The notes beneath the pieces were generated by a model. It searched no databases. It was not told the DNA's origin and saw only the letters and a list, made by a program, of their open reading frames with translations. Of a DNA stretch of 22,995 nucleotides, positions 4,418-17,260 are shown piece by piece (the first letter of the stretch is position 1; each line of letters opens with the position of its first letter). The DNA is from Candidatus Fraserbacteria bacterium (GTDB lineage Bacteria > Bipolaricaulota > Bipolaricaulia > RBG-16-55-9 > DRXL01): contig CAMTVK010000013.1 in NCBI GenBank assembly GCA_947085185.1, forward strand, positions 1-22,995. Reading direction: 5' to 3'. The position numbers were made by a program, and so were the translations under genes.

Positions 4418-6566
4418 GGGCTTCCCCAAGGGCCTTCTGTGCGAATCCTTCCGTGCTCTTGAGCATGAGCTGCCACCGATAGCGCCCTCGCCACCGATAG
4501 GGGAGGGCGCGCGCCGGACCAAGCACCTCGCCGATCTTCAGCTCTTCTAAGTGTTGCTTGAGGGTTTCAGAGTGTTTGGTCGCTTGGGCTTCGCTGCTGT
4601 GTTCGACGATCACGAAGATCAACCGCGAAAATGGCGGGTATCTGAGGGCTTGGCGCAGCTCAAGCTCGTGCTCGTAGAATGCACGATAGTCGTGTGCGGC
4701 AGCCAAACAAATGATCTCGTTATCGGGGTGTCGGGTTTGAATGATCACTTCTCCGGGGCGCTCGCCGCGGCCCGCTCGCCCTGCGGCTTGGGAGATGAGC
4801 TGAAACGTGCGCTCCCCCGCACGAAAGTCCGGGAAATCTAATAGAGTATCTGCCGAGACAATCCCCACCAGCGTCACGTTGGGGAAATCTAATCCCAGCC
4901 CGATCATCTGGGTGCCCACGAGCATCTGAATCTGTCCCTGACGAAAGGCTTCCAAGATCGCAGCATGCTCGCCGCGCCGCACGCTCTCGGAGTCCATCCG
5001 ACGCATATGGATATGGGGGAAGTTTTTCCGGACTTCAAGCTCCAATCTCTCTGTGCCCGCCCCTGCAAAGAGCAGTTCCGTCGAGCCACAGGAGCGGCAT
5101 TTGGGCATCTTGAGACGATACGCGCAATATCGGCAGCGCAGCTCTTGCTCGCGCATGTGCACCGTGAGGGCGATCTGACATGCCGGGCACTTCACCGTCT
5201 GGCGACAGCGCCGACAGATCGCAATAGAGTACCCCAATCTGTTGAGAAAGAGAATGACTTGCTCGCTATTGTTTAGTCTCTGCTCGATCTTGGCGCGCAG
5301 GATTGGGCTGAGCAGTTCTTGGCGGTCGCCCATGTCTATAATTTTGATCGTCGGCGGCTGGGCGGGGACGACGCGCTCAGGGAGCTCCAGCAATGTGAAG
5401 TGCCCATGCTGCGCATGAAAATAACTCTCGATGCTAGGGGTAGCGCTGCCCAGGACGACGGTCGCTCCGGCGAGCTCGGCACGCTTGAGTGCGACTTCGC
5501 GCACGTGATATCGGGGCGCAAGATCGTCTTGCTTGTAGGTGCTCTCGTGCTCTTCGTCAATCACTATAAGTTTGAGATTGGGGCAAGGCGCAAAGATTGC
5601 GGCGCGTACGCCGATGGCGATCTGAGCTTCGTGAGTTTTGAGGCGCTGCCAGGTGCGGGCGCGCTCAGAGTCGGTGAGCCCGCTGTGATAGACCGCGATG
5701 CGTTCGCCAAAGAGATTGCGAAAGCGCGCGATGAGCTGGGGGGTGAGCGAGATCTCTGGGACGAGCACGAGCGCTTGGCCGCCGCGCTCTAAGACGCTCT
5801 GGCAAGCTCGGAGATAGACTTCGGTCTTGCCGCTGTTGTTGACCCCGTGGAGGAGAAAGACCCGGCCCTCACTCCCAGATGGGAGAGGGGAGAGGGGCCG
5901 GGGGTGAGAGGGGCTGGGAGCGAGGGCCTGCGCGATTCTGTCTACAGCGCGTTGCTGCCAGCTTGTGAGCGCGACTCTTTTGGGCACTTCGTGGAATTCG
6001 ATGCGCTCGCGAGGCTTCTTGGTGACGGTGACCAGGCCCGCTTGGGCAAGAGCGCGCAGCGGCCCCGGCCCACATCCCACCTGGGCTAAGAGCTCTCGTT
6101 CTGGGAGGATCTCTGTACTCAGCAGCGCGCGGAGTATGGCAGCTTGCTGTGGGGCGCGCGTGGCGCGCTGCTCGATCTGAGCCAACAGCTCCGTCAGTGG
6201 GATGGTGAGTTTGACGTATCTGACGGCGTTCTCGCGCTTGGGGAGGGAGTGTCCTGGAGCTGTGGTCTGCAAGACGATCCCCAAGGGAGCTCCGTAATAT
6301 TCCGCGATCCAGCGCGCCAGGGCCAGATCGAGTTCGCTGAGCTCTGGTTCCGTCGTGACGAGAGTGACGATCTCGCGCAGGCGGCTCTCAAATGGGCTTT
6401 GCTCTTTGAGAGCGATGACGAACGCTTCGATCTTATCGCGCTCACGGAAGGGCACGAGCACCCGCTGCCCCACACGGATCCGCCCGCGGAGCGCTTCGGG
6501 GATTTTATAATCGAACGTCTGGTCTACGGCAATGGGGATGGCGACCTCAGCGATAGAATAGCTCAT
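4362..6566 (-). CDS. priA: primosomal protein N' (replication restart helicase)
   Basis: N-terminal FDY/GQRVLVPF 3'-binding domain, SGKTEVY, LVPEISLTPQ, IDEEHE..YKQ, four CxxC Zn pairs, GLDFPNVTLVG, QAAGRAGR, YPPF. Confidence 0.97.
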   Translation of the reverse strand: MSYSIAEVAIPIAVDQTFDYKIPEALRGRIRVGQRVLVPFRERDKIEAFVIALKEQSPFESRLREIVTLVTTEPELSELDLALARWIAEYYGAPLGIVLQTTAPGHSLPKRENAVRYVKLTIPLTELLAQIEQRATRAPQQAAILRALLSTEILPERELLAQVGCGPGPLRALAQAGLVTVTKKPRERIEFHEVPKRVALTSWQQRAVDRIAQALAPSPSHPRPLSPLPSGSEGRVFLLHGVNNSGKTEVYLRACQSVLERGGQALVLVPEISLTPQLIARFRNLFGERIAVYHSGLTDSERARTWQRLKTHEAQIAIGVRAAIFAPCPNLKLIVIDEEHESTYKQDDLAPRYHVREVALKRAELAGATVVLGSATPSIESYFHAQHGHFTLLELPERVVPAQPPTIKIIDMGDRQELLSPILRAKIEQRLNNSEQVILFLNRLGYSIAICRRCRQTVKCPACQIALTVHMREQELRCRYCAYRLKMPKCRSCGSTELLFAGAGTERLELEVRKNFPHIHMRRMDSESVRRGEHAAILEAFRQGQIQMLVGTQMIGLGLDFPNVTLVGIVSADTLLDFPDFRAGERTFQLISQAAGRAGRGERPGEVIIQTRHPDNEIICLAAAHDYRAFYEHELELRQALRYPPFSRLIFVIVEHSSEAQATKHSETLKQHLEELKIGEVLGPARALPYRWRGRYRWQLMLKSTEGFAQKALGEALTELKLADLVTVHVDPQL
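5864..5928. repeat. 65-bp palindromic element embedded in frame in priA
   Basis: GGCCCTCACTCCCAG (5864-5878) and CTGGGAGCGAGGGCC (5914-5928) form a 14/15 inverted repeat around a G-rich core. Confidence 0.7.
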
Positions 6567-8407
6567 GGCACCAGCTCGATCTGCCAGGGAGATCTTACGA
6601 TGATCTGCGGCTGCCCCTGATACTGAGAGAATTCCCCGGTCACGCGGATCTTCTTCTTCGTGTAGAACGACGCCGGGTCGATGCCCAGCCCGCGAAAGCG
6701 CGGCTCATAGCTCTTGAAAATTATCACGGAGAGATGGTTTGAAAAATCTCTGTCAGACTGTATTCGGATGACGCTCCCTGAGACTGTCGTAGCGGCGACG
6801 GTGAACTCCGTCGTGACGAGCTTTTTTAGGAAGCGTTCGGGCTGAGATTCCAGCGCTTGTCTGGGGGTGAGCCCCAGCACGACGCGCTCGCGGGTATTGG
6901 TGCGCCACTGCGGGCCGAGACATTTCGTCGCCGCTTTACAGTCCAAGTCGTCGCAGTCTGGAGAGCGATCCCCGTCGTTGTCAATAGTATCATCGCAGTC
7001 GCACTCCTTGCGCGCCCCGACGATGGGACAGAACGGTGCTCGCACATCGCGCACAAATTCGTTGGACCATTCCGTGAATTGATTGTTCACAAAGCCGCGC
7101 ATCCGATAGAACCAACGCTGTCCGGGCTGGACGTCTTCGTCGACAAAATAGCGATAATGTGCGGGGATCTGGGAGTAGACGCGCTCACAAGGACCAAACG
7201 ACCCTTTGGCGCGGCAGAGCTCATAGAAATCTACAGAACTGACAAGATGGGGCCGCCACTCGATGCGCGCTAGGACGTCTTGGGTATTATAGTGACGGAG
7301 AGTGACGCGTGGCGGCAGCGTCGGCGTCCTATCGTAAAGCAAAGCGTCTTGCTTGAGGCGCTCAAAGTGCTCTGTATAGGCGCGAGCGAGTTCTGGGTTT
7401 TCGAGCACCAAGAGATTCTCGTCATTGCTGAAAAGCCCACTATCCGACCAGTTGGTCGAGCCGGCGATCACAGTCGTGCCGTCAATCACGGCAAACTTAT
7501 GGTGCACTAACCCAGGGAGGGCATCGACGACACCGATCCCTAGTTGCAGTGCGTCATCGATCTCAGAATCTTCGAAGCGCTCCCAGCCGCGAAAGTCCCA
7601 GACGGCGTCGATCTTCACACCTCGGGTTTGCGCGGCAGCCAACTCCGCCATCAACAAATCGTCCGTGAAATAGAACATCGCGATCTGTATAGTTTTTTTC
7701 GCTTGGCGGATCGCGTCGCGCATGATCTTCTGAGGAGCGCCGCTGGGGGTGAAGTACACCCCCACGGTCGTCGAGCCGATCGTATAGGTACGCAGCTGTG
7801 TAAAGACTTTTCCGTCGTATTTCTGCTGCCCAAAGCGATCTTTGAGGAACATCTCATTGAACTCGGTCGTGAAGAGCCGGGCGAGTCGCCCGTCACGGAT
7901 CACGAGCGCATTGTTGGCGTCGAAGAGGAGTTCCCTGTCGGTCCAGTTGAGTGATCCTGTCCAGACTACAGAGCCATCAACGACCGCAAATTTATGGTGC
8001 ATCGTGTGCTCGAAGCGTTCGCGGGCGTCGGCGTTGATGTCGGTCTTGATGGTCGCGCACGGGAGATTTTGTACCTGAGTAAATTCGCTGGAAAACTCCT
8101 CAACAGAAGACTGATCTAGGACGAGCCTCACCGTGACGCCGCGGGCGCACGCGCGCTGCAGCGCGGCAATGACAGGGAGATATGCCAGGCGATAGACTGC
8201 AATATCTATGTTCTTGTGTGCTGAATCGATCAGGGCGATCAGCGCACTGTCTACCCCGTTGGCTTGCTTGTCGGGTTTGTCCATCCACGGAAGCCCTGCT
8301 ATAGGATTCGTGAAATAAACCGTAACAAGATCGCCGGCTATCTGCGCTGATGGCGCCCATCCCAAGGCCAGAATAGACACCAGCGCAACGAACAAAAATC
8401 TCTTCAT
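6563..8407 (-). CDS. secreted phospholipase D-family protein (two HKD motifs) with FN3-like, Cys/Asp-rich and OB-fold-like C-terminal domains
   Basis: Signal peptide; HHKFAVVD…TGSLNW and HHKFAVID…AGSTNW; SD GGAAGGAGG; ATGA overlap with priA. Confidence 0.88.
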   Translation of the reverse strand: MKRFLFVALVSILALGWAPSAQIAGDLVTVYFTNPIAGLPWMDKPDKQANGVDSALIALIDSAHKNIDIAVYRLAYLPVIAALQRACARGVTVRLVLDQSSVEEFSSEFTQVQNLPCATIKTDINADARERFEHTMHHKFAVVDGSVVWTGSLNWTDRELLFDANNALVIRDGRLARLFTTEFNEMFLKDRFGQQKYDGKVFTQLRTYTIGSTTVGVYFTPSGAPQKIMRDAIRQAKKTIQIAMFYFTDDLLMAELAAAQTRGVKIDAVWDFRGWERFEDSEIDDALQLGIGVVDALPGLVHHKFAVIDGTTVIAGSTNWSDSGLFSNDENLLVLENPELARAYTEHFERLKQDALLYDRTPTLPPRVTLRHYNTQDVLARIEWRPHLVSSVDFYELCRAKGSFGPCERVYSQIPAHYRYFVDEDVQPGQRWFYRMRGFVNNQFTEWSNEFVRDVRAPFCPIVGARKECDCDDTIDNDGDRSPDCDDLDCKAATKCLGPQWRTNTRERVVLGLTPRQALESQPERFLKKLVTTEFTVAATTVSGSVIRIQSDRDFSNHLSVIIFKSYEPRFRGLGIDPASFYTKKKIRVTGEFSQYQGQPQIIVRSPWQIELVP

Positions 8408-8505
8408 GAGTCCCTCCTTCCTTGCACTCGCACCTCACAGAGTAGTCTATCTCGCCCCTGGATGACGATCAAGTGCGGGTCTCGCCCTGGGGGCGTCTCT
8501 CGCAT

Positions 8506-8511
8506 ATTATA
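8506..8511 (-). promoter_or_regulatory. possible -10 element for the PLD-priA unit
   Basis: TATAAT on the minus strand about 100 nt upstream of the PLD start; no good -35. Confidence 0.45.
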
Positions 8512-8600
8512 CGCATAGGAAGCGAAAAATCATGATCTCCTCACCACACGCTTGGACCTGTGTTCATCTCTAAGAGGGACTGGGATCACAGGTGTTACTC

Positions 8601-8629
8601 TTGACATAAAAAAAAATTTCCTCTATACT
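8601..8629 (+). promoter_or_regulatory. near-consensus sigma70 promoter driving the leader and Lys-rich peptide
   Basis: TTGACA (8601-8606), 17-bp spacer containing A9, TATACT (8624-8629). Confidence 0.85.
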
Positions 8630-8635
8630 CACAGC

Positions 8636-8896
8636 GGGAAGTGTCTCAACGGTGGTGTATGGAACATATGAAAGGAGCGTCGAAGAACCCTTTGGAGAAC
8701 GAGAAAAGATCTTATCACAGCGATCTTTTTCCCTGTACCAATACACCACCGATCTCCTGTCACCTACTCTTTCCCTCTTCCTTCCTGTGGAGCATCTCTG
8801 AAAGAACTCACGCGCGCAAAACTCGACCTTGGCCTCCAGCTTCATAAACCCATGAATCACTATCCCAATCTTCGCACACAGAGGAGGTGACAGAGC
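8636..8896 (+). promoter_or_regulatory. long structured 5' leader (putative cis-regulatory RNA) with anti-SD
   Basis: 11-bp perfect stem 8650-8660/8741-8751 enclosing two hairpins; 8757-8770 is complementary (13/14) to the SD region 8880-8893. Confidence 0.7.
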
Positions 8897-8968
8897 ATGG
8901 CGACGAAGAAGAAAGCCGCCACCAAGAAGAAGACGACGGCGAAGAAGACGGCCAAGAAGAAGAAGTAA
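8897..8968 (+). CDS. 23-aa Lys/Ala/Thr-rich basic peptide MATKKKAATKKKTTAKKTAKKKK (histone H1-tail-like)
   Basis: Strong SD GAGGAGGTGA at 8881-8890, ATG 8897, TAA 8966-8968, codons almost all G/C-ending, own promoter and downstream hairpins. Confidence 0.8.
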   Translation: MATKKKAATKKKTTAKKTAKKKK

Positions 8969-8975
8969 GAGAGCA

Positions 8976-9010
8976 GCCCTCGACAAAGTTCTCCACCCCT
9001 TGTCGAGGGC
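8976..9010 (+). terminator. 11-bp hairpin after the peptide gene (terminator or 3' stabiliser)
   Basis: GCCCTCGACAA (8976-8986) / TTGTCGAGGGC (9000-9010); no U-tract, lies between convergent genes. Confidence 0.6.
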
Positions 9011-9016
9011 CGGATA

Positions 9017-9045
9017 GTAGGGGGCGACCAGCCAGTCGCCCCTAC
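9017..9045. repeat. GTAG-type REP-like palindrome
   Basis: GTAGGGGGCGAC-CAGCCA-GTCGCCCCTAC, with GTAG/CTAC ends and a GC stem. Confidence 0.65.
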
Positions 9046-9061
9046 TTCTATTGTACCCACC

Positions 9062-10084
9062 CTAGGGGTGAAGGAGCAACTTTCCGAACTGTTCGCGGTT
9101 TTCGAGCATCTCCTGCGCGGCGGCCGCCTCTGCCAAGGGGAACGCCTTGGCGATCACAGGGCGGAGTTTCCCCGCCCAAACTAAGCGGAGCACCGTGTGC
9201 AGATCGCGTCGTGTTCCCATGGTCGAACCAAAAATCTGAATCTGTCTCCAAAAGACCAAGCGAATATCGGTCTCGCCGATGGGCCCGCTGGTCGCGCCGC
9301 ACGTTACTAAGCGTCCGTTGCGCGCCAAAGCCCGCAAGCTCTTGGACCAGGTCGCCTGCCCGACACTCTCGATCACTACGTCAACGCCGCGCTTGTTGGT
9401 GAGCTTCCAGACTTCTTTGTCGAAGTCTGTCTTGGCATAGTTAATCACGAGATCAGCGCCGAGTTCTTTCGCTTGAGAAAGTTTTTCGTCGGTGCTGGCG
9501 CACGCGATGACCCGCGCGCCGCAGAGCTTGGCGATCTGGATCGCCGCGCTGCCCACACCGCTGCCAGCTGCTAAAACTAAGACGTCCTCGCCGGGGCGGA
9601 CCTTCGCACGCGTGACCACCATTCGCCACGCCGTCATGAAGACTAAGGGGACGGCTGCCGCTTCGTCGAACGAGACATGATCAGGAATCTTTATAATATT
9701 GCGCGCGGGGACTTTGACGAACTCTGCATAGCCGCCAGGAGCGTGCTCACCTAAGATCCCATACTGGACGCAGAGACTATCTTCGCCCATCTGACAATAT
9801 TCGCACTCCCCACAGGTCAAGTTGGGGTTGAGCACGACGCGCTCGCCCACTCTTATATCTTTCACGGCCGAGCCGACTCGCTCGACAACGCCGGCGACGT
9901 CCGCTCCGGGGATGTGCGGGGGCTCCAGCCCCGGAATGCCCCGGCGCACCCAGATATCTAAATGATTGAGCGCACACGATTTGACGCGAACTAATACCTC
10001 GTGCTCCGCAATCTCTGGAATAGAGATCTCTTCGAGCTTCAGTTTTTCTGGGCCACCGTGTTCACGAATGACGATCGCTTTCAT
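9062..10084 (-). CDS. zinc-binding MDR-family oxidoreductase (alcohol dehydrogenase/quinone reductase-like)
   Basis: MKAIVIREHGGPE, LNHLD in place of the catalytic-Zn Cys, structural Zn CGECEYC…C, AGSGVG nucleotide-binding loop, FGKLLL end; SD TAAGGAGG. Confidence 0.92.
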   Translation of the reverse strand: MKAIVIREHGGPEKLKLEEISIPEIAEHEVLVRVKSCALNHLDIWVRRGIPGLEPPHIPGADVAGVVERVGSAVKDIRVGERVVLNPNLTCGECEYCQMGEDSLCVQYGILGEHAPGGYAEFVKVPARNIIKIPDHVSFDEAAAVPLVFMTAWRMVVTRAKVRPGEDVLVLAAGSGVGSAAIQIAKLCGARVIACASTDEKLSQAKELGADLVINYAKTDFDKEVWKLTNKRGVDVVIESVGQATWSKSLRALARNGRLVTCGATSGPIGETDIRLVFWRQIQIFGSTMGTRRDLHTVLRLVWAGKLRPVIAKAFPLAEAAAAQEMLENREQFGKLLLHP

Positions 10085-12758: not shown

Positions 12759-13547
12759 ATGGCGCAATTAGAGATCAAAGATCTCCACGTGAGCGTCGAG
12801 GGCAAGGAGATTTTGAAGGGCTTGACGCTGACGGTGAAGACTGGAGAGATTCACTCGATCATGGGGCCCAACGGCTCTGGCAAGAGCACGTTAGCGTTAG
12901 CGTTGATGGGCCATCCCAAGTACGAAGTGACCAAGGGCGAGATCCTCTTCAAGGGACACAATATCGTCGATCTGGAGCCCAACGAGCGGGCGCGCTTGGG
13001 GTTGTTTTTGGCGTTTCAGTACCCCTTGGAGATCCAAGGTGTCCCGCTAGGGCGGTTTCTGTGGGCGGCCAAGAAAGCCCTCTTAGGGCACTCCCAAGAC
13101 GGCCAGACCGATAAGAGAGCCGACGCTAAGATGCTCTCACAGTTCAGAAAAGAGCTGCAAGAGAAGATGAAACTGCTCAAGATGGACGAGTCGTTTGCGC
13201 AACGCTATCTCAATGTAGGCTTCTCCGGCGGCGAGAAGAAGCGCGCGGAGATCATTCAGATGCACATGCTCAAGCCGGAGATCGCCATCTTGGACGAGAC
13301 CGATTCGGGCTTGGATATAGATTCAGTGAAGATTGTCGCCGAAGCTGTCAATCAATTGCGCGGGCCAGACTTTGGCGCGCTCGTTATTACGCATTATCAA
13401 CGTATTCTCAATTTCTTAAAACCCGACTTCGTGCACGTCATGATTGATGGGCGTATCGTGCGCAGCGGTGATGAGAGCTTAGTTCATGAACTTGAAGCCA
13501 AGGGCTACGACTGGCTGGTGAACGAAGTCAAGGAGGAGGTAAGATGA
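12759..13547 (+). CDS. sufC: Fe-S assembly ATPase SufC
   Basis: [54 protein letters not shown]. Start set to ATG 12759 after GAGAGG; the TTG at 12693 is the -35 box. Confidence 0.97.
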
Positions 13548-16500
13548 CCAAGAAGCTCGAAGAAGTCCGCCATTTAGGGGAGAAGAAGCGCCCCACTACG
13601 ACCGTGACCAAAGAGACCTACGATCGAGATTACTCTCGTTATGCGTTCAGCTATCCAACGGATAAGTATAAGTACGTGCTCCAGCCGGGGCTCTCCCGCG
13701 AGGTGGTCGAAGAGATCTCGGCGATCAAGGACGAGCCCCCATGGATGCGGGAGTTTCGCCTGTACGCTTATGAGGTCTTTCTGAAGAAGCCCATGCCCAC
13801 GTGGGGCGGCGATCTTTCTGCGATCAATTTCGACGCGATTACGTACTATGCGACGCCCACGGATAAGGGCGCACGCCGGTGGGAGGACGTCCCTGAGGAA
13901 GTCAAGAAGACCTTTGATCGTTTGGGCATTCCCGAAGCCGAACGAAAGTTCTTAGCAGGCGTCGGCGCACAATACGACTCGGAAGTCGTCTATCATTCCA
14001 TTCGCGAAGATTTAGCGAAGAAGGGCGTGGTCTTTCTCAGCATGGACGACGGCCTGCGCGAGTACCCGGATTTAGTGAAGGAGTACTTCGGCACGGTCGT
14101 GCCCCCCACGGACAATAAATTCGCGGCGCTGAACTCTGCCGTCTGGTCGGGAGGATGCTTAACGGCTGATGCCCAGGTGTTTACTGTCGAGGGAATCAAA
14201 TCTATTGCTGAAATCCGCCCAGGGGACATGGTAGCAGCTCTGTCGCCCAAAGGGGAGCTTGTGTCTGCTCCGGTGGTCGCCCAGATCTACAGCGGTCGCA
14301 AGCCTGTCTATCGATTTCGTGTGGCTGGCCGCATGCTGGAGGCGACCAGCAATCACATGTTTCTGACCTTAGAGAAATCCTCCGTTCCGCTTGACTGTGT
14401 TGGGCGCAAGTGGAGGATGGTGTGGAAACCCCTGGCGCAGCTTAAGGTAGGTGACATCATTGCCATTGCCAAGCGGATTCCCTGGCAAGGGCAGAGCAAG
14501 GCGCTCCCCCCATTGCCAAGCTATCGGAAGAACCATCACCTGCGGCGCTCCTTGTGCGCTCCTGCGAGGACTAGCCCAGACCTCATGTGGCTGTTAGGGA
14601 TATGGGTAGGCGATGGCAACACTTACGCTCCCCATCCGCATATGCGCTTCATTAACTTTGCTCTCCCTCAGAATGACCCTGCGCGCCTGGAGGTCGTCCG
14701 GCTTCTGAAGAAGCTCTTTCACTATACGGTTAAGACACAGACTCCCCAAAGCTTTACGGTATACTCGAAGGCACTCGGCGAGTGGCTTGCTGAGTTGGGT
14801 TTTGTGGGCAAGGCTAAGACAAAGCGTATTCCTCCCTGGGTCTTCGGGCTGCCGTTAGGAGAGAAGCTCGCTTTCCTTGGTGGACTGTTGGACTCAGATG
14901 GTTGGGTGGAAAACGAAGGCAAGACGGTGTGCTTTGAGTTGGCCAACGAAAAGCTCATTGAAGACATCAAGCTGCTTGCTATCTCGTGCGGTCTCTTCAG
15001 TGATGGAAAGATCAGAGAGCGCCGTCGTCGTTCGGCTCTCTTGAAGCAAGAGAAGCGTCAGATTGTCTCTGGTAGAACGTATGCCTGTCGCATCACCGGG
15101 AATGTAGCGCTGATAGGGAGCCGCAACCCACGCTGGCGAGCTCTCTTCGATCGAGCGCAGAAGCGTACCTTTGATAAGTATACAACCATCACGGGTGAGA
15201 ATTTTTCCAGCTTGGCAACGGAGGAGATCGGCTTTGCCCCAATTCGTGAGAAGCAGTATATCGGCGTGCGCGACGTGTACGATATCCAAGTAGAAGGATA
15301 CGCAAATTTCGTAGCTAATGGGATCGTTGCTCACAATAGCTTCATCTATGTGCCCAAGGGCGTGCACGTGGAGATCCCATTGCAAGCGTATTTCAGAATC
15401 AATGCGCCGCAGATGGGGCAGTTTGAACGGACGCTCATCATCGCCGATGAAGGAGCACGCGTGCATTATATAGAAGGGTGCTTGCCAGGGGGCGAGCAAA
15501 TCAGCGTAGGTGACCGGTGGACGAACGTCGAAGCCCTCAAACCCGGTGACTTCGTGATCGCCGATAACGGCGAGAGAGCCCGCGTCCGAGCCGTGATGGT
15601 CCGCCCCTATCGCGGAGAGATGCTCACCATCCGGCCTATCTCGCCATACAATGCGTTTAGGTTGACTCCAGAGCACCCCGTGCTGGTCGTGCGTCGCTCC
15701 AGCGTCTTACGGAGACGCAGATCGCGCAACGGGTGGCTTCCGGAAGTAGACACGAAGAAGCTACTTGCGGCTCAGCCAGAGTATGTGCCAGCGGGCGAAC
15801 TCACCGTCGGGGATTTTCTAGTCTTTCCCAAGGTGCAAGCCCAGGGCTATAACCCCAAATATTCTTCAGAGCTGCTCAAGCTTCTGGGGTACTATCTTGC
15901 CGAGGGCTCGGCGTTTATACACAAGACGCTCAATGTGCCGGTGGTCAGCTTCACGTTCGGCGCAAACGAGACGGATGTCGTCGCCGAAGTCTGTGATCTG
16001 ATTACTCAGACCACGGGCAAGAGGGCCTATGTAACCGAGCTCAAAGGGAGACACGCCGTGAACGTGACGGTCTATTCCCAAGAGCTCTTTGAGCTGTGCA
16101 GAAGCTCTTGTGGTAATGGTGCGGCAACAAAGCGCTTGAGCGACGAGCTTATGGCACTCCCTCCAGAGCAGATCGAGCCCTTGCTGACGGCGTATTTCGC
16201 TGGGGATGGCAACGTCTGCGACAAAGGCAATAGCGTGATGTATCGTGCAGCTACGGCCTCAGAGACGCTCGCTCAACAGCTTCAGGAGCTCCTTGCTCGC
16301 CAGGGCATCTATGCGAGTATTCAGGTGCGCCCCGGCGGCGACGACGTGATCAACGCCAGAAAGATCCAGCGAAAAGATCAATATATCATCACGTATACGG
16401 TTGACCAACAGTGGAGCGAGATTCGCCAGACGGACAGATATTTCTTGGTGCCCATCAAGGGCATCGAGCGAGCGCCCTATGAGGGCTTCGTCTTCAATCT

Positions 16501-17260
16501 CGACGTCGAGGGACCTAATTCGTACTTGGTGCGGGGCTTTGCTGTGCACAACTGCACCGCACCTATCTATTCGAAAGAATCGCTGCACTCTGCGGTCGTC
16601 GAGCTCATCGCCAAGCGCGGCGCCCATCTGCGATATACGACCCTACAAAACTGGTCCAACGACGTCTATAACTTAGTGACCAAGCGCGCAGTGGCCTACG
16701 AAGAGGCTACGGTGGAGTGGGTGGACGCCAATATCGGTTCTCGTATCACTATGAAGTATCCGGCTGTATATATGCTGGGCAAGGGCGCACGCGCAGATAT
16801 TCTCTCCGTGGCGTTTGCCGGCAAAGGCCAGCACCAAGACACCGGGGGCAAAGCGATCCACGCGGCTCCGTATACGACGTCTACAATCGTCTCTAAGTCC
16901 GTCAGCAAGGACGGCGGGCGCGCCACCTATCGTGGACAATTGGTCGTTGCTAAAGGGGCCCATCATGCCAAGTCCAACGTGCGCTGCGATGCGCTGCTCT
17001 TAGATGAGCGCTCTCGCTCGGATACGTATCCGTATATTGAAATTGACGAGGACCAAGTGACCATCGGACATGAAGCGACCGTCGGAAAAGTCGGCGACGA
17101 CCAGATCTTCTATCTGATGAGCCGAGGGCTGTCCGAATCGGAAGCTCTGTCCATGATCGTGCTGGGATTTATGGAGCCGTTTACCAAGACATTGCCAATG
17201 GAATATGCTATTGAATTCAATCGGCTCATCCAACTTGAAATGGAAGGCTCGGTTGGGTAG
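13544..17260 (+). CDS. sufB: Fe-S assembly scaffold SufB precursor containing two inteins (about 486 aa after splicing)
   Basis: LGIPEAE…[83 protein letters not shown]. Confidence 0.97.
14156..15337 (+). mobile_element. intein 1 in SufB (394 aa) with LAGLIDADG homing endonuclease
   Basis: [12 protein letters not shown]…ATSNH (block B)…LLGIWVGDG…[10 protein letters not shown]…VYDIQV…[10 protein letters not shown]. Confidence 0.95.
15479..16552 (+). mobile_element. intein 2 in SufB (358 aa) with LAGLIDADG homing endonuclease
   Basis: [12 protein letters not shown]…LTPEHP…LLGYYLAEG…LTAYFAGDG…VFNLDV…[10 protein letters not shown]. Confidence 0.95.

Follow-up and report, generated by a model that had tools for sequence, protein, structure and literature searches.

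The 22,995-nt stretch of DNA analysed here (the window) carries a one-peptide unit, made up of a promoter, a long leader, a 23-aa ORF and two 3' hairpins, in which translation of the leader appears to control synthesis of a lysine-rich micropeptide. The reading that we favour, with moderate confidence, is a translation relay of the mok/hok or mgtQ kind, in which ribosomes on an upstream reading frame (uORF1) likely melt the pairing that hides the Shine-Dalgarno (SD) sequence of the peptide gene and so gate the polycation. The gating itself we infer with good support, and the direction of the effect we infer as well. All features of the unit were confirmed where a first-pass annotation had placed them. 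That annotation had described the leader as an SD-sequestering element of 260 nt; the leader does not look untranslated, because it holds two conserved reading frames, uORF1 and uORF2.

In a DNA search of 61 genomes, 16 of the family's 18 genomes, that of the window among them, proved to carry a complete unit; of the remaining two, one is 69% complete and gave no match, and the other has a contig end (L013, dropped). The promoter pattern, run on metagenome contigs, added four loci, among them L059, which is identical to a genome unit and was dropped. The 19 distinct units comprise 15 genus-type units (from the window's genus), three from a second genus (L014-L016) and one from a third genus (L017), and the promoter, the SD, a peptide of 16-30 aa and the hairpins are kept in every one of them. 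L022, L024 and L025 are weak DNA matches that were rejected as peptide genes. In the window the unit lies between a divergent phospholipase D-family gene (PLD; 6563..8407, minus strand, PF13091) and a convergent zinc-binding dehydrogenase gene (MDR; 9062..10084, minus strand, PF00107 and PF08240). A search of relatives for a conserved ORF between these two genes, proposed as a check on the first reading, came out in its favour, with both flanks holding in 15 of 16 genome units: MDR lies downstream in all 16 and PLD upstream in 15, its place in L017 being taken by another gene. The leader and the first 3' hairpin are single-copy in the genome, on which ground a REP-like repeat was rejected, and the terminator has one look-alike. 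An acidic 171-aa frame from 8887 and minus-strand frames of 138 and 62 aa were read as shadows of AAG repeats and set aside. Elsewhere in the window, positions 13544-17260 hold a SufB-like ORF of 1238 aa in which two intein-like inserts (Cys start, His-Asn end) were seen by eye, with one LAGLIDADG-like motif in them.

The unit begins with a sigma-70-type promoter on the plus strand (8601..8629; TTGACA at 8601, 17 nt, TATACT at 8624-8629) that matches the consensus at 11 of 12 positions, predicts a start near 8636 and is kept in 19 of 19 units, which bears out the strong promoter claimed earlier. Positions 8000-9800 contain three promoter-like sites compared with 0.7 +/- 0.8 in shuffles, and genome-wide this promoter is one among 118 sites that score at least 11/12. 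Its spacer (8607-8623), an A-tract followed by a T-tract, is conserved across the family and is possibly a bend or a binding site. A palindrome at 8576..8589, 11 nt before the -35 box, resembles sites of what we take to be the CRP/FNR family. Thirteen of the 15 genus-type units have GTGA-N6-TCAC at this position, the deviations being a degenerate left half in the window and the right half in L012; L014-L016 have GTA-N8-TAC there and L017 has none. Since GTGA-N6-TCAC is enriched in the 1.7-Mb genome (44 sites vs 13-21 for spacers of 4, 5, 7 or 8) and the genome carries 12 cNMP-domain matches, most of them in frames of 209-271 aa, it is plausible from these patterns that a CRP/FNR-type regulator acts at the palindrome.

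The peptide gene (8897..8968, plus strand) is unannotated, and its product was correctly described beforehand as a 23-aa polycation: 12 residues are lysine and the others, besides the start Met, are Ala and Thr. Its SD (8880..8893, plus strand) is very strong: the energy of its pairing to the 16S tail of the genome, -17.6 kcal/mol, lies past the 5th percentile (-13.8) for 952 long ORFs of the genome. Searches of Pfam and NCBIfam at E 10, whose sensitivity for such peptides is low, gave no match for the 23-aa and 30-aa peptides, and PDB searches, which are weak for low-complexity peptides, gave none either. The Atlas contains similar sequences as unnamed hypothetical proteins, and among the Atlas clusters that have a family the closest is HC2 (score 0.86, 17% of members), which we take as a lead only.

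Upstream of this gene, uORF1 (59 codons, 8668..8847, plus strand, with a further in-frame ATG at 8659) spans the 3' arm of one RNA helix (P1) and the anti-SD arm of a second (P2), both described below. It is open in 19 of 19 units, runs for 42-63 codons from an ATG whose position is fixed (in L014-L016 it lies four codons later, with the frame unchanged) and stops 31-50 nt ahead of the peptide start. Within the 15 genus-type units its length changes by whole codons only: the distance from a GGTGGTG motif to the anti-SD is 98, 101, 104, 107 or 110 nt, one frame throughout, unlike the non-coding stretches of the same units, which vary by 1-2 nt. The other two leader frames are open in three and six of these units; the long one of them (MVVH...), open in six units that all belong to one clade, was set aside. 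Leader composition alone keeps a single copy of uORF1 open 15-45% of the time. All 15 copies stayed open together in none of 2000 column permutations (mean 7.1) and in none of 300 tree simulations (mean 5.8), figures that are to be read with the frame having been picked after inspection and the units being kin. The likely SD of uORF1 is GGTGGTG (8651-8657), which pairs with the 16S tail at -8.6 to -12.1 kcal/mol across the genus-type units (genome median -7.8); its spacing of 11 nt lies in the long tail of the genome range, where 14 of 197 counted sites have at least 11 nt.

The residues of uORF1 behave differently from its frame. Its dN/dS is 0.66, vs 0.10 for a control, the last 60 codons of MDR at 14 of the 15 genus-type loci (L008 was left out of this control only); with synonymous divergence equal, uORF1 shows five times the non-synonymous divergence of MDR. 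Identity by codon position is 0.59/0.61/0.57 in uORF1, with no third-position excess, compared with 0.90/0.95/0.61 in MDR. The conserved codons are those that fall in the RNA helices, where His-to-Tyr changes preserve the pairing by wobble. Comparison among relatives therefore indicates that uORF1 is real and under selection, in the manner of a regulatory uORF in which the frame matters and the residues matter little. These figures also bear on an alternative that we regard as unlikely, namely that uORF1 encodes a genuine small protein that evolves fast, or what is left of one, within an operon of two or three genes, with the SD pairing a static damper or a by-product. A dN/dS below 1, falling to 0.22 over five CHLLF codons, would suit such a protein, as would three loci in another family of the phylum (L193, L194, L200), where a similar basic peptide is preceded, at a distance of 40-43 nt, by the end of a 76-77-aa ORF that has an acidic tail and two Cys-x-x-Cys motifs. 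The flat codon-position profile, the non-synonymous divergence and the coincidence of conserved codons with wobble-preserved helices argue against it, as does the fact that the uORF1 product has no match in Pfam, NCBIfam or the Atlas.

The consensus fold of 12 genus units contains two helices: P1, between the GGTGGTG region and a stretch of uORF1, and P2, between the anti-SD and the SD. The arms of P1 (8650..8660 and 8741..8751, plus strand) are complementary at 11 of 11 positions in the window, so that the 5' arm includes the likely SD of uORF1 and the 3' arm lies inside uORF1. One compensatory change sets the window (T-A) apart from its relatives (C-G). In folds at 37 C that extend to ATG+15, the predicted probability of P1 is at least 0.92 in 12 of 15 units, a figure without a shuffled null. 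For P1 we relied on pairs called sequence by sequence, because the ungapped count takes the wrong register in L014 and L016 and alignment A2 shifts the P1 arm of the window. When the window's leader is folded step by step, GGTGGTG stays about 55% unpaired for lengths of up to 110 nt; at 120 nt and beyond it is closed.

P2 joins the anti-SD inside uORF1 (8757..8770, plus strand) to the peptide's SD (8880..8893), and the reverse complementarity reported earlier, 13 of 14 positions covering the whole SD, was reproduced. Its duplex energy in the window, -20.2 kcal/mol, exceeds that of all 48 other strong-SD genes of the genome and that of 199 of 200 block shuffles of the leader. Among the 15 genus-type units, 13 have an anti-SD duplex that likewise outdoes every one of the 48 background genes. 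In L060 and in L014-L017 the duplex does not rise above background; L014-L016, three sequences only, have a local hairpin over the SD instead. The predicted anti-SD/SD gate is thus genus-specific. Compensatory SD/anti-SD changes had been proposed as a further check: in the genus-type units, to which the anti-SD is confined, the 13 anchored pairs of P2 hold in 12-15 of 15, through changes that mostly keep wobble pairing, and a change on both sides occurs only once, because the SD hardly varies.

How firmly P2 forms depends on the fold considered. With folds to ATG+15 at 37 C its probability is at least 0.91 in 13 of 15 units; in full-length folds it is below 0.4 in nine of 15 at 37 C and at least 0.63 in 11 of 15 at 60 C. 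The window's copy departs from its relatives here: folded to ATG+15, it is predicted to form the exact 14-bp helix with a probability of 0.00 at 37 C, rising to 0.49 at 60 C, and its SD is still predicted to be paired (unpaired 0.13-0.14), but with other C/U tracts. The sequestration of the SD proposed by the first-pass annotation is retained as a prediction, and in the window's own copy the particular helix proposed is not the dominant predicted fold. A bulged extension of the pairing over the AUG is not conserved either: 13 of 15 units leave the AUG unpaired with a probability of roughly 0.5 or higher (fold to ATG+15, 37 C). The stability of the window's 276-nt leader fold is not unusual (z -0.66). 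With the anti-SD held open, the SD becomes cheaper to open in 14 of the 15 units, L012 being the exception; in the window the cost goes down from 12.1 to 7.9 kcal/mol at 37 C and from 9.4 to 4.2 kcal/mol at 60 C. By this folding proxy, translation of uORF1 would raise translation of the peptide.

P1 and P2 are conserved helices, and between 37 and 60 C the opening cost of the window's SD drops from 12.1 to 9.4 kcal/mol; these two points would also fit a leader that acts as an RNA switch without uORF translation, its SD being opened as a thermometer, by a ligand-binding element or at a protein-binding site. We consider such a switch improbable. It leaves the kept start, frame and stop of uORF1 unexplained, and the stretch enclosed by P1 shows little shared structure. 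The riboswitch or RNA thermometer logic that had been suggested found no backing in Rfam, whose covariance models gave no match at family threshold over the unit, whether to a riboswitch, a thermometer, 6S RNA or tmRNA, and only a tRNA elsewhere in the window. A tmRNA identity was rejected, the genome's tmRNA having been found by Rfam on another contig; the ARAGORN output listed no tmRNA. For 6S RNA there was no match in the genome, which is 96.8% complete, and the same model matched in only five of 14 control genomes.

The favoured relay further calls on uORF2 (12 codons, 8852..8890, plus strand), which begins 4 nt past the uORF1 stop and has its TGA inside the peptide's SD. Its ATG is present in all 15 genus-type units and in L017, and absent in L014-L016. 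uORF1 ends either on this ATG or 4-5 nt before it, with an ATGA overlap in nine relatives. uORF2 has no SD of its own in the window (energy near 0) and none in most units. In ten genus-type units and in L017 its stop falls inside the peptide's SD; L008 has the stop just past the SD, L057 and L058 have it over the peptide start, and in L012 and L060 uORF2 is fused to the peptide. In the relay that we propose, a ribosome would load on uORF1 during the phase in which the first ~110 nt are accessible and P1 has yet to close, and its passage would open both P1 and the anti-SD, so that the message stays open for later ribosomes. The ribosome would stop 40-50 nt before the peptide start, re-initiate on uORF2 and finish at the peptide's SD. 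Messages that miss early loading would fold shut at both sites, and the peptide would be made only from messages already under translation; peptide output would therefore follow the coupling of translation to transcription. The opposite direction is also conceivable, as ribosomes on uORF2 could occlude the peptide's SD.

A stronger version of the relay is a self-latching switch, which we put forward tentatively and judge to be considerably less probable than not. The codons of uORF1 would shut both SDs unless a pioneer ribosome enters within ~110 nt, so that each message would be all-on or all-off, and the switch would meter a micropeptide resembling the tail of histone H1; the peptide, by favouring RNA annealing, or an antisense RNA from the 3' end may close the loop. 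If true, it would offer a regulatory handle on when cells make polycation micropeptides. In this family the gene carries an elaborate, conserved gate that is predicted to act on translation, and control this tight suggests that it is important when, or in what amount, the peptide is made.

The two terminal hairpins described earlier were found and are kept in all 19 units. The first (8976..9010), after the stop codon, is single-copy in the genome. Its C-rich loop (8987-8999) is nearly invariant in the genus, where the leader is far more variable, and differs in other genera; no partner for the loop was found. The second (9020..9043) is terminator-like and lies between the converging peptide and MDR genes, its stem kept and its sequence changed in relatives. 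Just beyond it, a minus-strand TA(C/A)AAT occurs in 19 of 19 units with TTG(C/G)TC 17-18 nt upstream; in the window this putative antisense promoter (9050..9079, minus strand) reads TTGCTC at 9079-9074, 18 nt and TACAAT at 9055-9050. Its -35 lies inside MDR codons and its -10 doubles as the plus-strand T-rich tail of the terminator. The motif may accordingly be an antisense promoter or a terminator tail only. The search for an antisense RNA that had been recommended thus turned up a conserved promoter-like motif at the 3' end, and the promoter scan called no minus-strand promoter there or over the leader.

These observations matter for a type I toxin-antitoxin-like locus, in which the polycation would be harmful when over-made and a minus-strand RNA from near 9043 would repress it. 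The mok-like uORF, the sequestered SD and the long leader are what such a locus would have, and, of the 1622 stop codons in the genome, only 28 have within 10 nt a hexamer of the TA(C/A)AAT type, which is found here in all 19 units. We give this explanation little credence. The peptide is not hydrophobic, and the unit is single-copy and syntenic across the family; the promoter scan supports no minus-strand promoter, and none overlaps the leader as Sok and RdlD do. Pairing of an antisense-strand hairpin loop with the leader was rejected, being no better than shuffles in 15 of 15 units, and the minus-strand motif has its other role in the terminator tail.

Similar peptides extend far beyond the family. 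A pattern of GGTGA, a start and the first few residues, narrow as it is, matched at least 120 loci in the eight parts covered, out of 64, of a collection of species genomes, with an estimated ~1000 stretches in the collection. Among the 124 matches listed, 111 are closed ORFs of at most 45 aa, nearly all Lys/Ala-rich to the end, and the bacteria represented include Acidobacteriota, Chloroflexota, Nitrospirota, Methylomirabilota, Verrucomicrobiota, Planctomycetota, Eisenbacteria and candidate-phyla bacteria; several archaea are listed as well. The 115 listed peptides of at most 50 aa consist of 56% K, 27% A and 5% T, and 84 of them end in KKK; their Lys codons follow genome GC, and their stops are TAA or TAG in 114 of the 115. 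A general anti-SD was not seen in this wider class (mean -13.0 vs background -14.6 kcal/mol for 108 listed loci, with the family member L093 excluded from the count). Basic peptides are also present in other families of the phylum, and by inspection the leader of the genus-type units was not recognised in nine loci from them. A Pfam survey of 144 fragments flanking the peptide gene in the first 80 of the wider loci, which picked the longest frames and so misses genes in GC-rich DNA, found no common neighbour of the class, and Rfam, run on 20 of the 120 wider loci listed, gave no match. A peptide profile run over 184 genomes found six copies and is uninformative on absence, because it missed most of the known ones. 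A literature search found no description of the peptide class or the leader, most subscription papers and supplements lying outside its scope; small-protein catalogues may list such peptides in their supplements. The class is widespread, unannotated and without a family profile, and its function is read from charge.

Several subsets of the wider class show features of their own. Five Acidobacteriota-labelled loci (L061, L084, L088, L178, L180) share, in the ~150 nt before the peptide start, a different conserved, apparently structured leader that ends at the SD (Rfam on L061: no match). Eleven mostly Eisenbacteria-labelled loci (L072, L074, L075, L142, L148, L153, L154, L157, L161, L165, L170) share a conserved motif of ~17 nt after the stop and before the terminator hairpin (Rfam on L072: no match). 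Tandem peptide genes, each with its own SD, occur in L067, L076, L086, L090, L095, L117, L130, L163, L169 and L173. In L064 and L124, two loci only, the peptide gene has polyphosphate kinase or Ppx/GppA genes beside it, which is of interest for the idea of polyphosphate binding.

The wider class also offers a view on whether the peptide could be a small basic ribosomal or ribosome-associated protein, presumably of the bL37, bTHX or eL41 type, with the leader as its feedback control. Its size and charge, its strong SD and its stand-alone promoter agree with this. A zf-HC2 anti-sigma-type gene precedes the peptide gene in L065, L102 and L106, which is where mycobacteria carry their bL37 gene, and an L28 gene is nearby at three loci. 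We nevertheless hold the ribosomal explanation to be very unlikely, given that peptide length is free (10 to 45 aa and more), tandem copies exist, the composition is nearly Lys and Ala only, the neighbours are mostly unrelated to translation and the weak PDB searches gave no match. Going by charge, the peptide is predicted to be a polycation that binds nucleic acid, whether DNA or RNA, or polyphosphate, and it most likely works like a free tail of the histone H1 type.

Chlamydial Hc2 is a histone-H1-like protein with a Lys/Ala tail. In AlgP (PMC9239181), in PhaF with its KPAA region (PMC12818456) and in Hc2, such Lys/Ala stretches have DNA, polyphosphate granules or mRNA leaders as their targets. 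The peptide shares with these tails a disordered-type, low-complexity composition rich in Lys and Ala; it differs in that the tail is the whole protein (16-30 aa), Thr replaces the Pro repeats and there is no folded domain. No Pfam or NCBIfam profile places it in an H1-like family, at the low sensitivity that such profiles have for peptides of this kind.

For the leader, the nearest precedents are tiny ORFs behind upstream frames. In the available portion of one account, translation of the upstream mok ORF in a structured leader is required for the tiny hok ORF of plasmid R1, and translation of ldrX has been proposed to be required for ldrD in E. coli (PMC4147584). The unit has in common with both, on that partial account, a long structured leader with an internal upstream ORF before a tiny ORF, and the type I mRNA comparison drawn earlier fits better than it did then, because a mok-like upstream frame is present, with predicted coupling. 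A long SD-sequestering leader is predicted for the genus-type units only, in another register in the window's own fold. Where Hok and LdrD are hydrophobic membrane toxins, the product here is a Lys/Ala polycation (12 of 23 residues Lys); uORF1 stops short of the gene, with a second short frame bridging the gap, and the unit is chromosomal and syntenic, with its candidate antisense motif at the 3' end and not over the leader. We do not class the unit as a type I toxin-antitoxin system, because the peptide is not hydrophobic and any antisense antitoxin is putative. A second precedent is the mgtQ uORF of Salmonella mgtCBRU, whose translation frees the downstream ribosome-binding site from inhibitory structure (PMC8092293, in the text available), and Sinorhizobium uORFs couple to downstream translation, such coupling being reported as widespread in the accessible part of that study (PMC13285730). 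An upstream ORF that releases, or is coupled to, a downstream ribosome-binding site would be common to these systems, so far as the sources go, and to the unit, where it is predicted: the RBS-sequestering strand (the anti-SD) lies inside uORF1, as in an mgtQ-type arrangement. Unlike mgtQ, uORF1 has 42-63 codons and no conserved sensing residues outside the helices; its pairing bridges about 100-130 nt, and its codons are predicted to shut the SD that serves uORF1 itself. A uORF selected for its frame and not its residues, and closing its own SD in this way, would extend mok-type logic beyond toxin genes.
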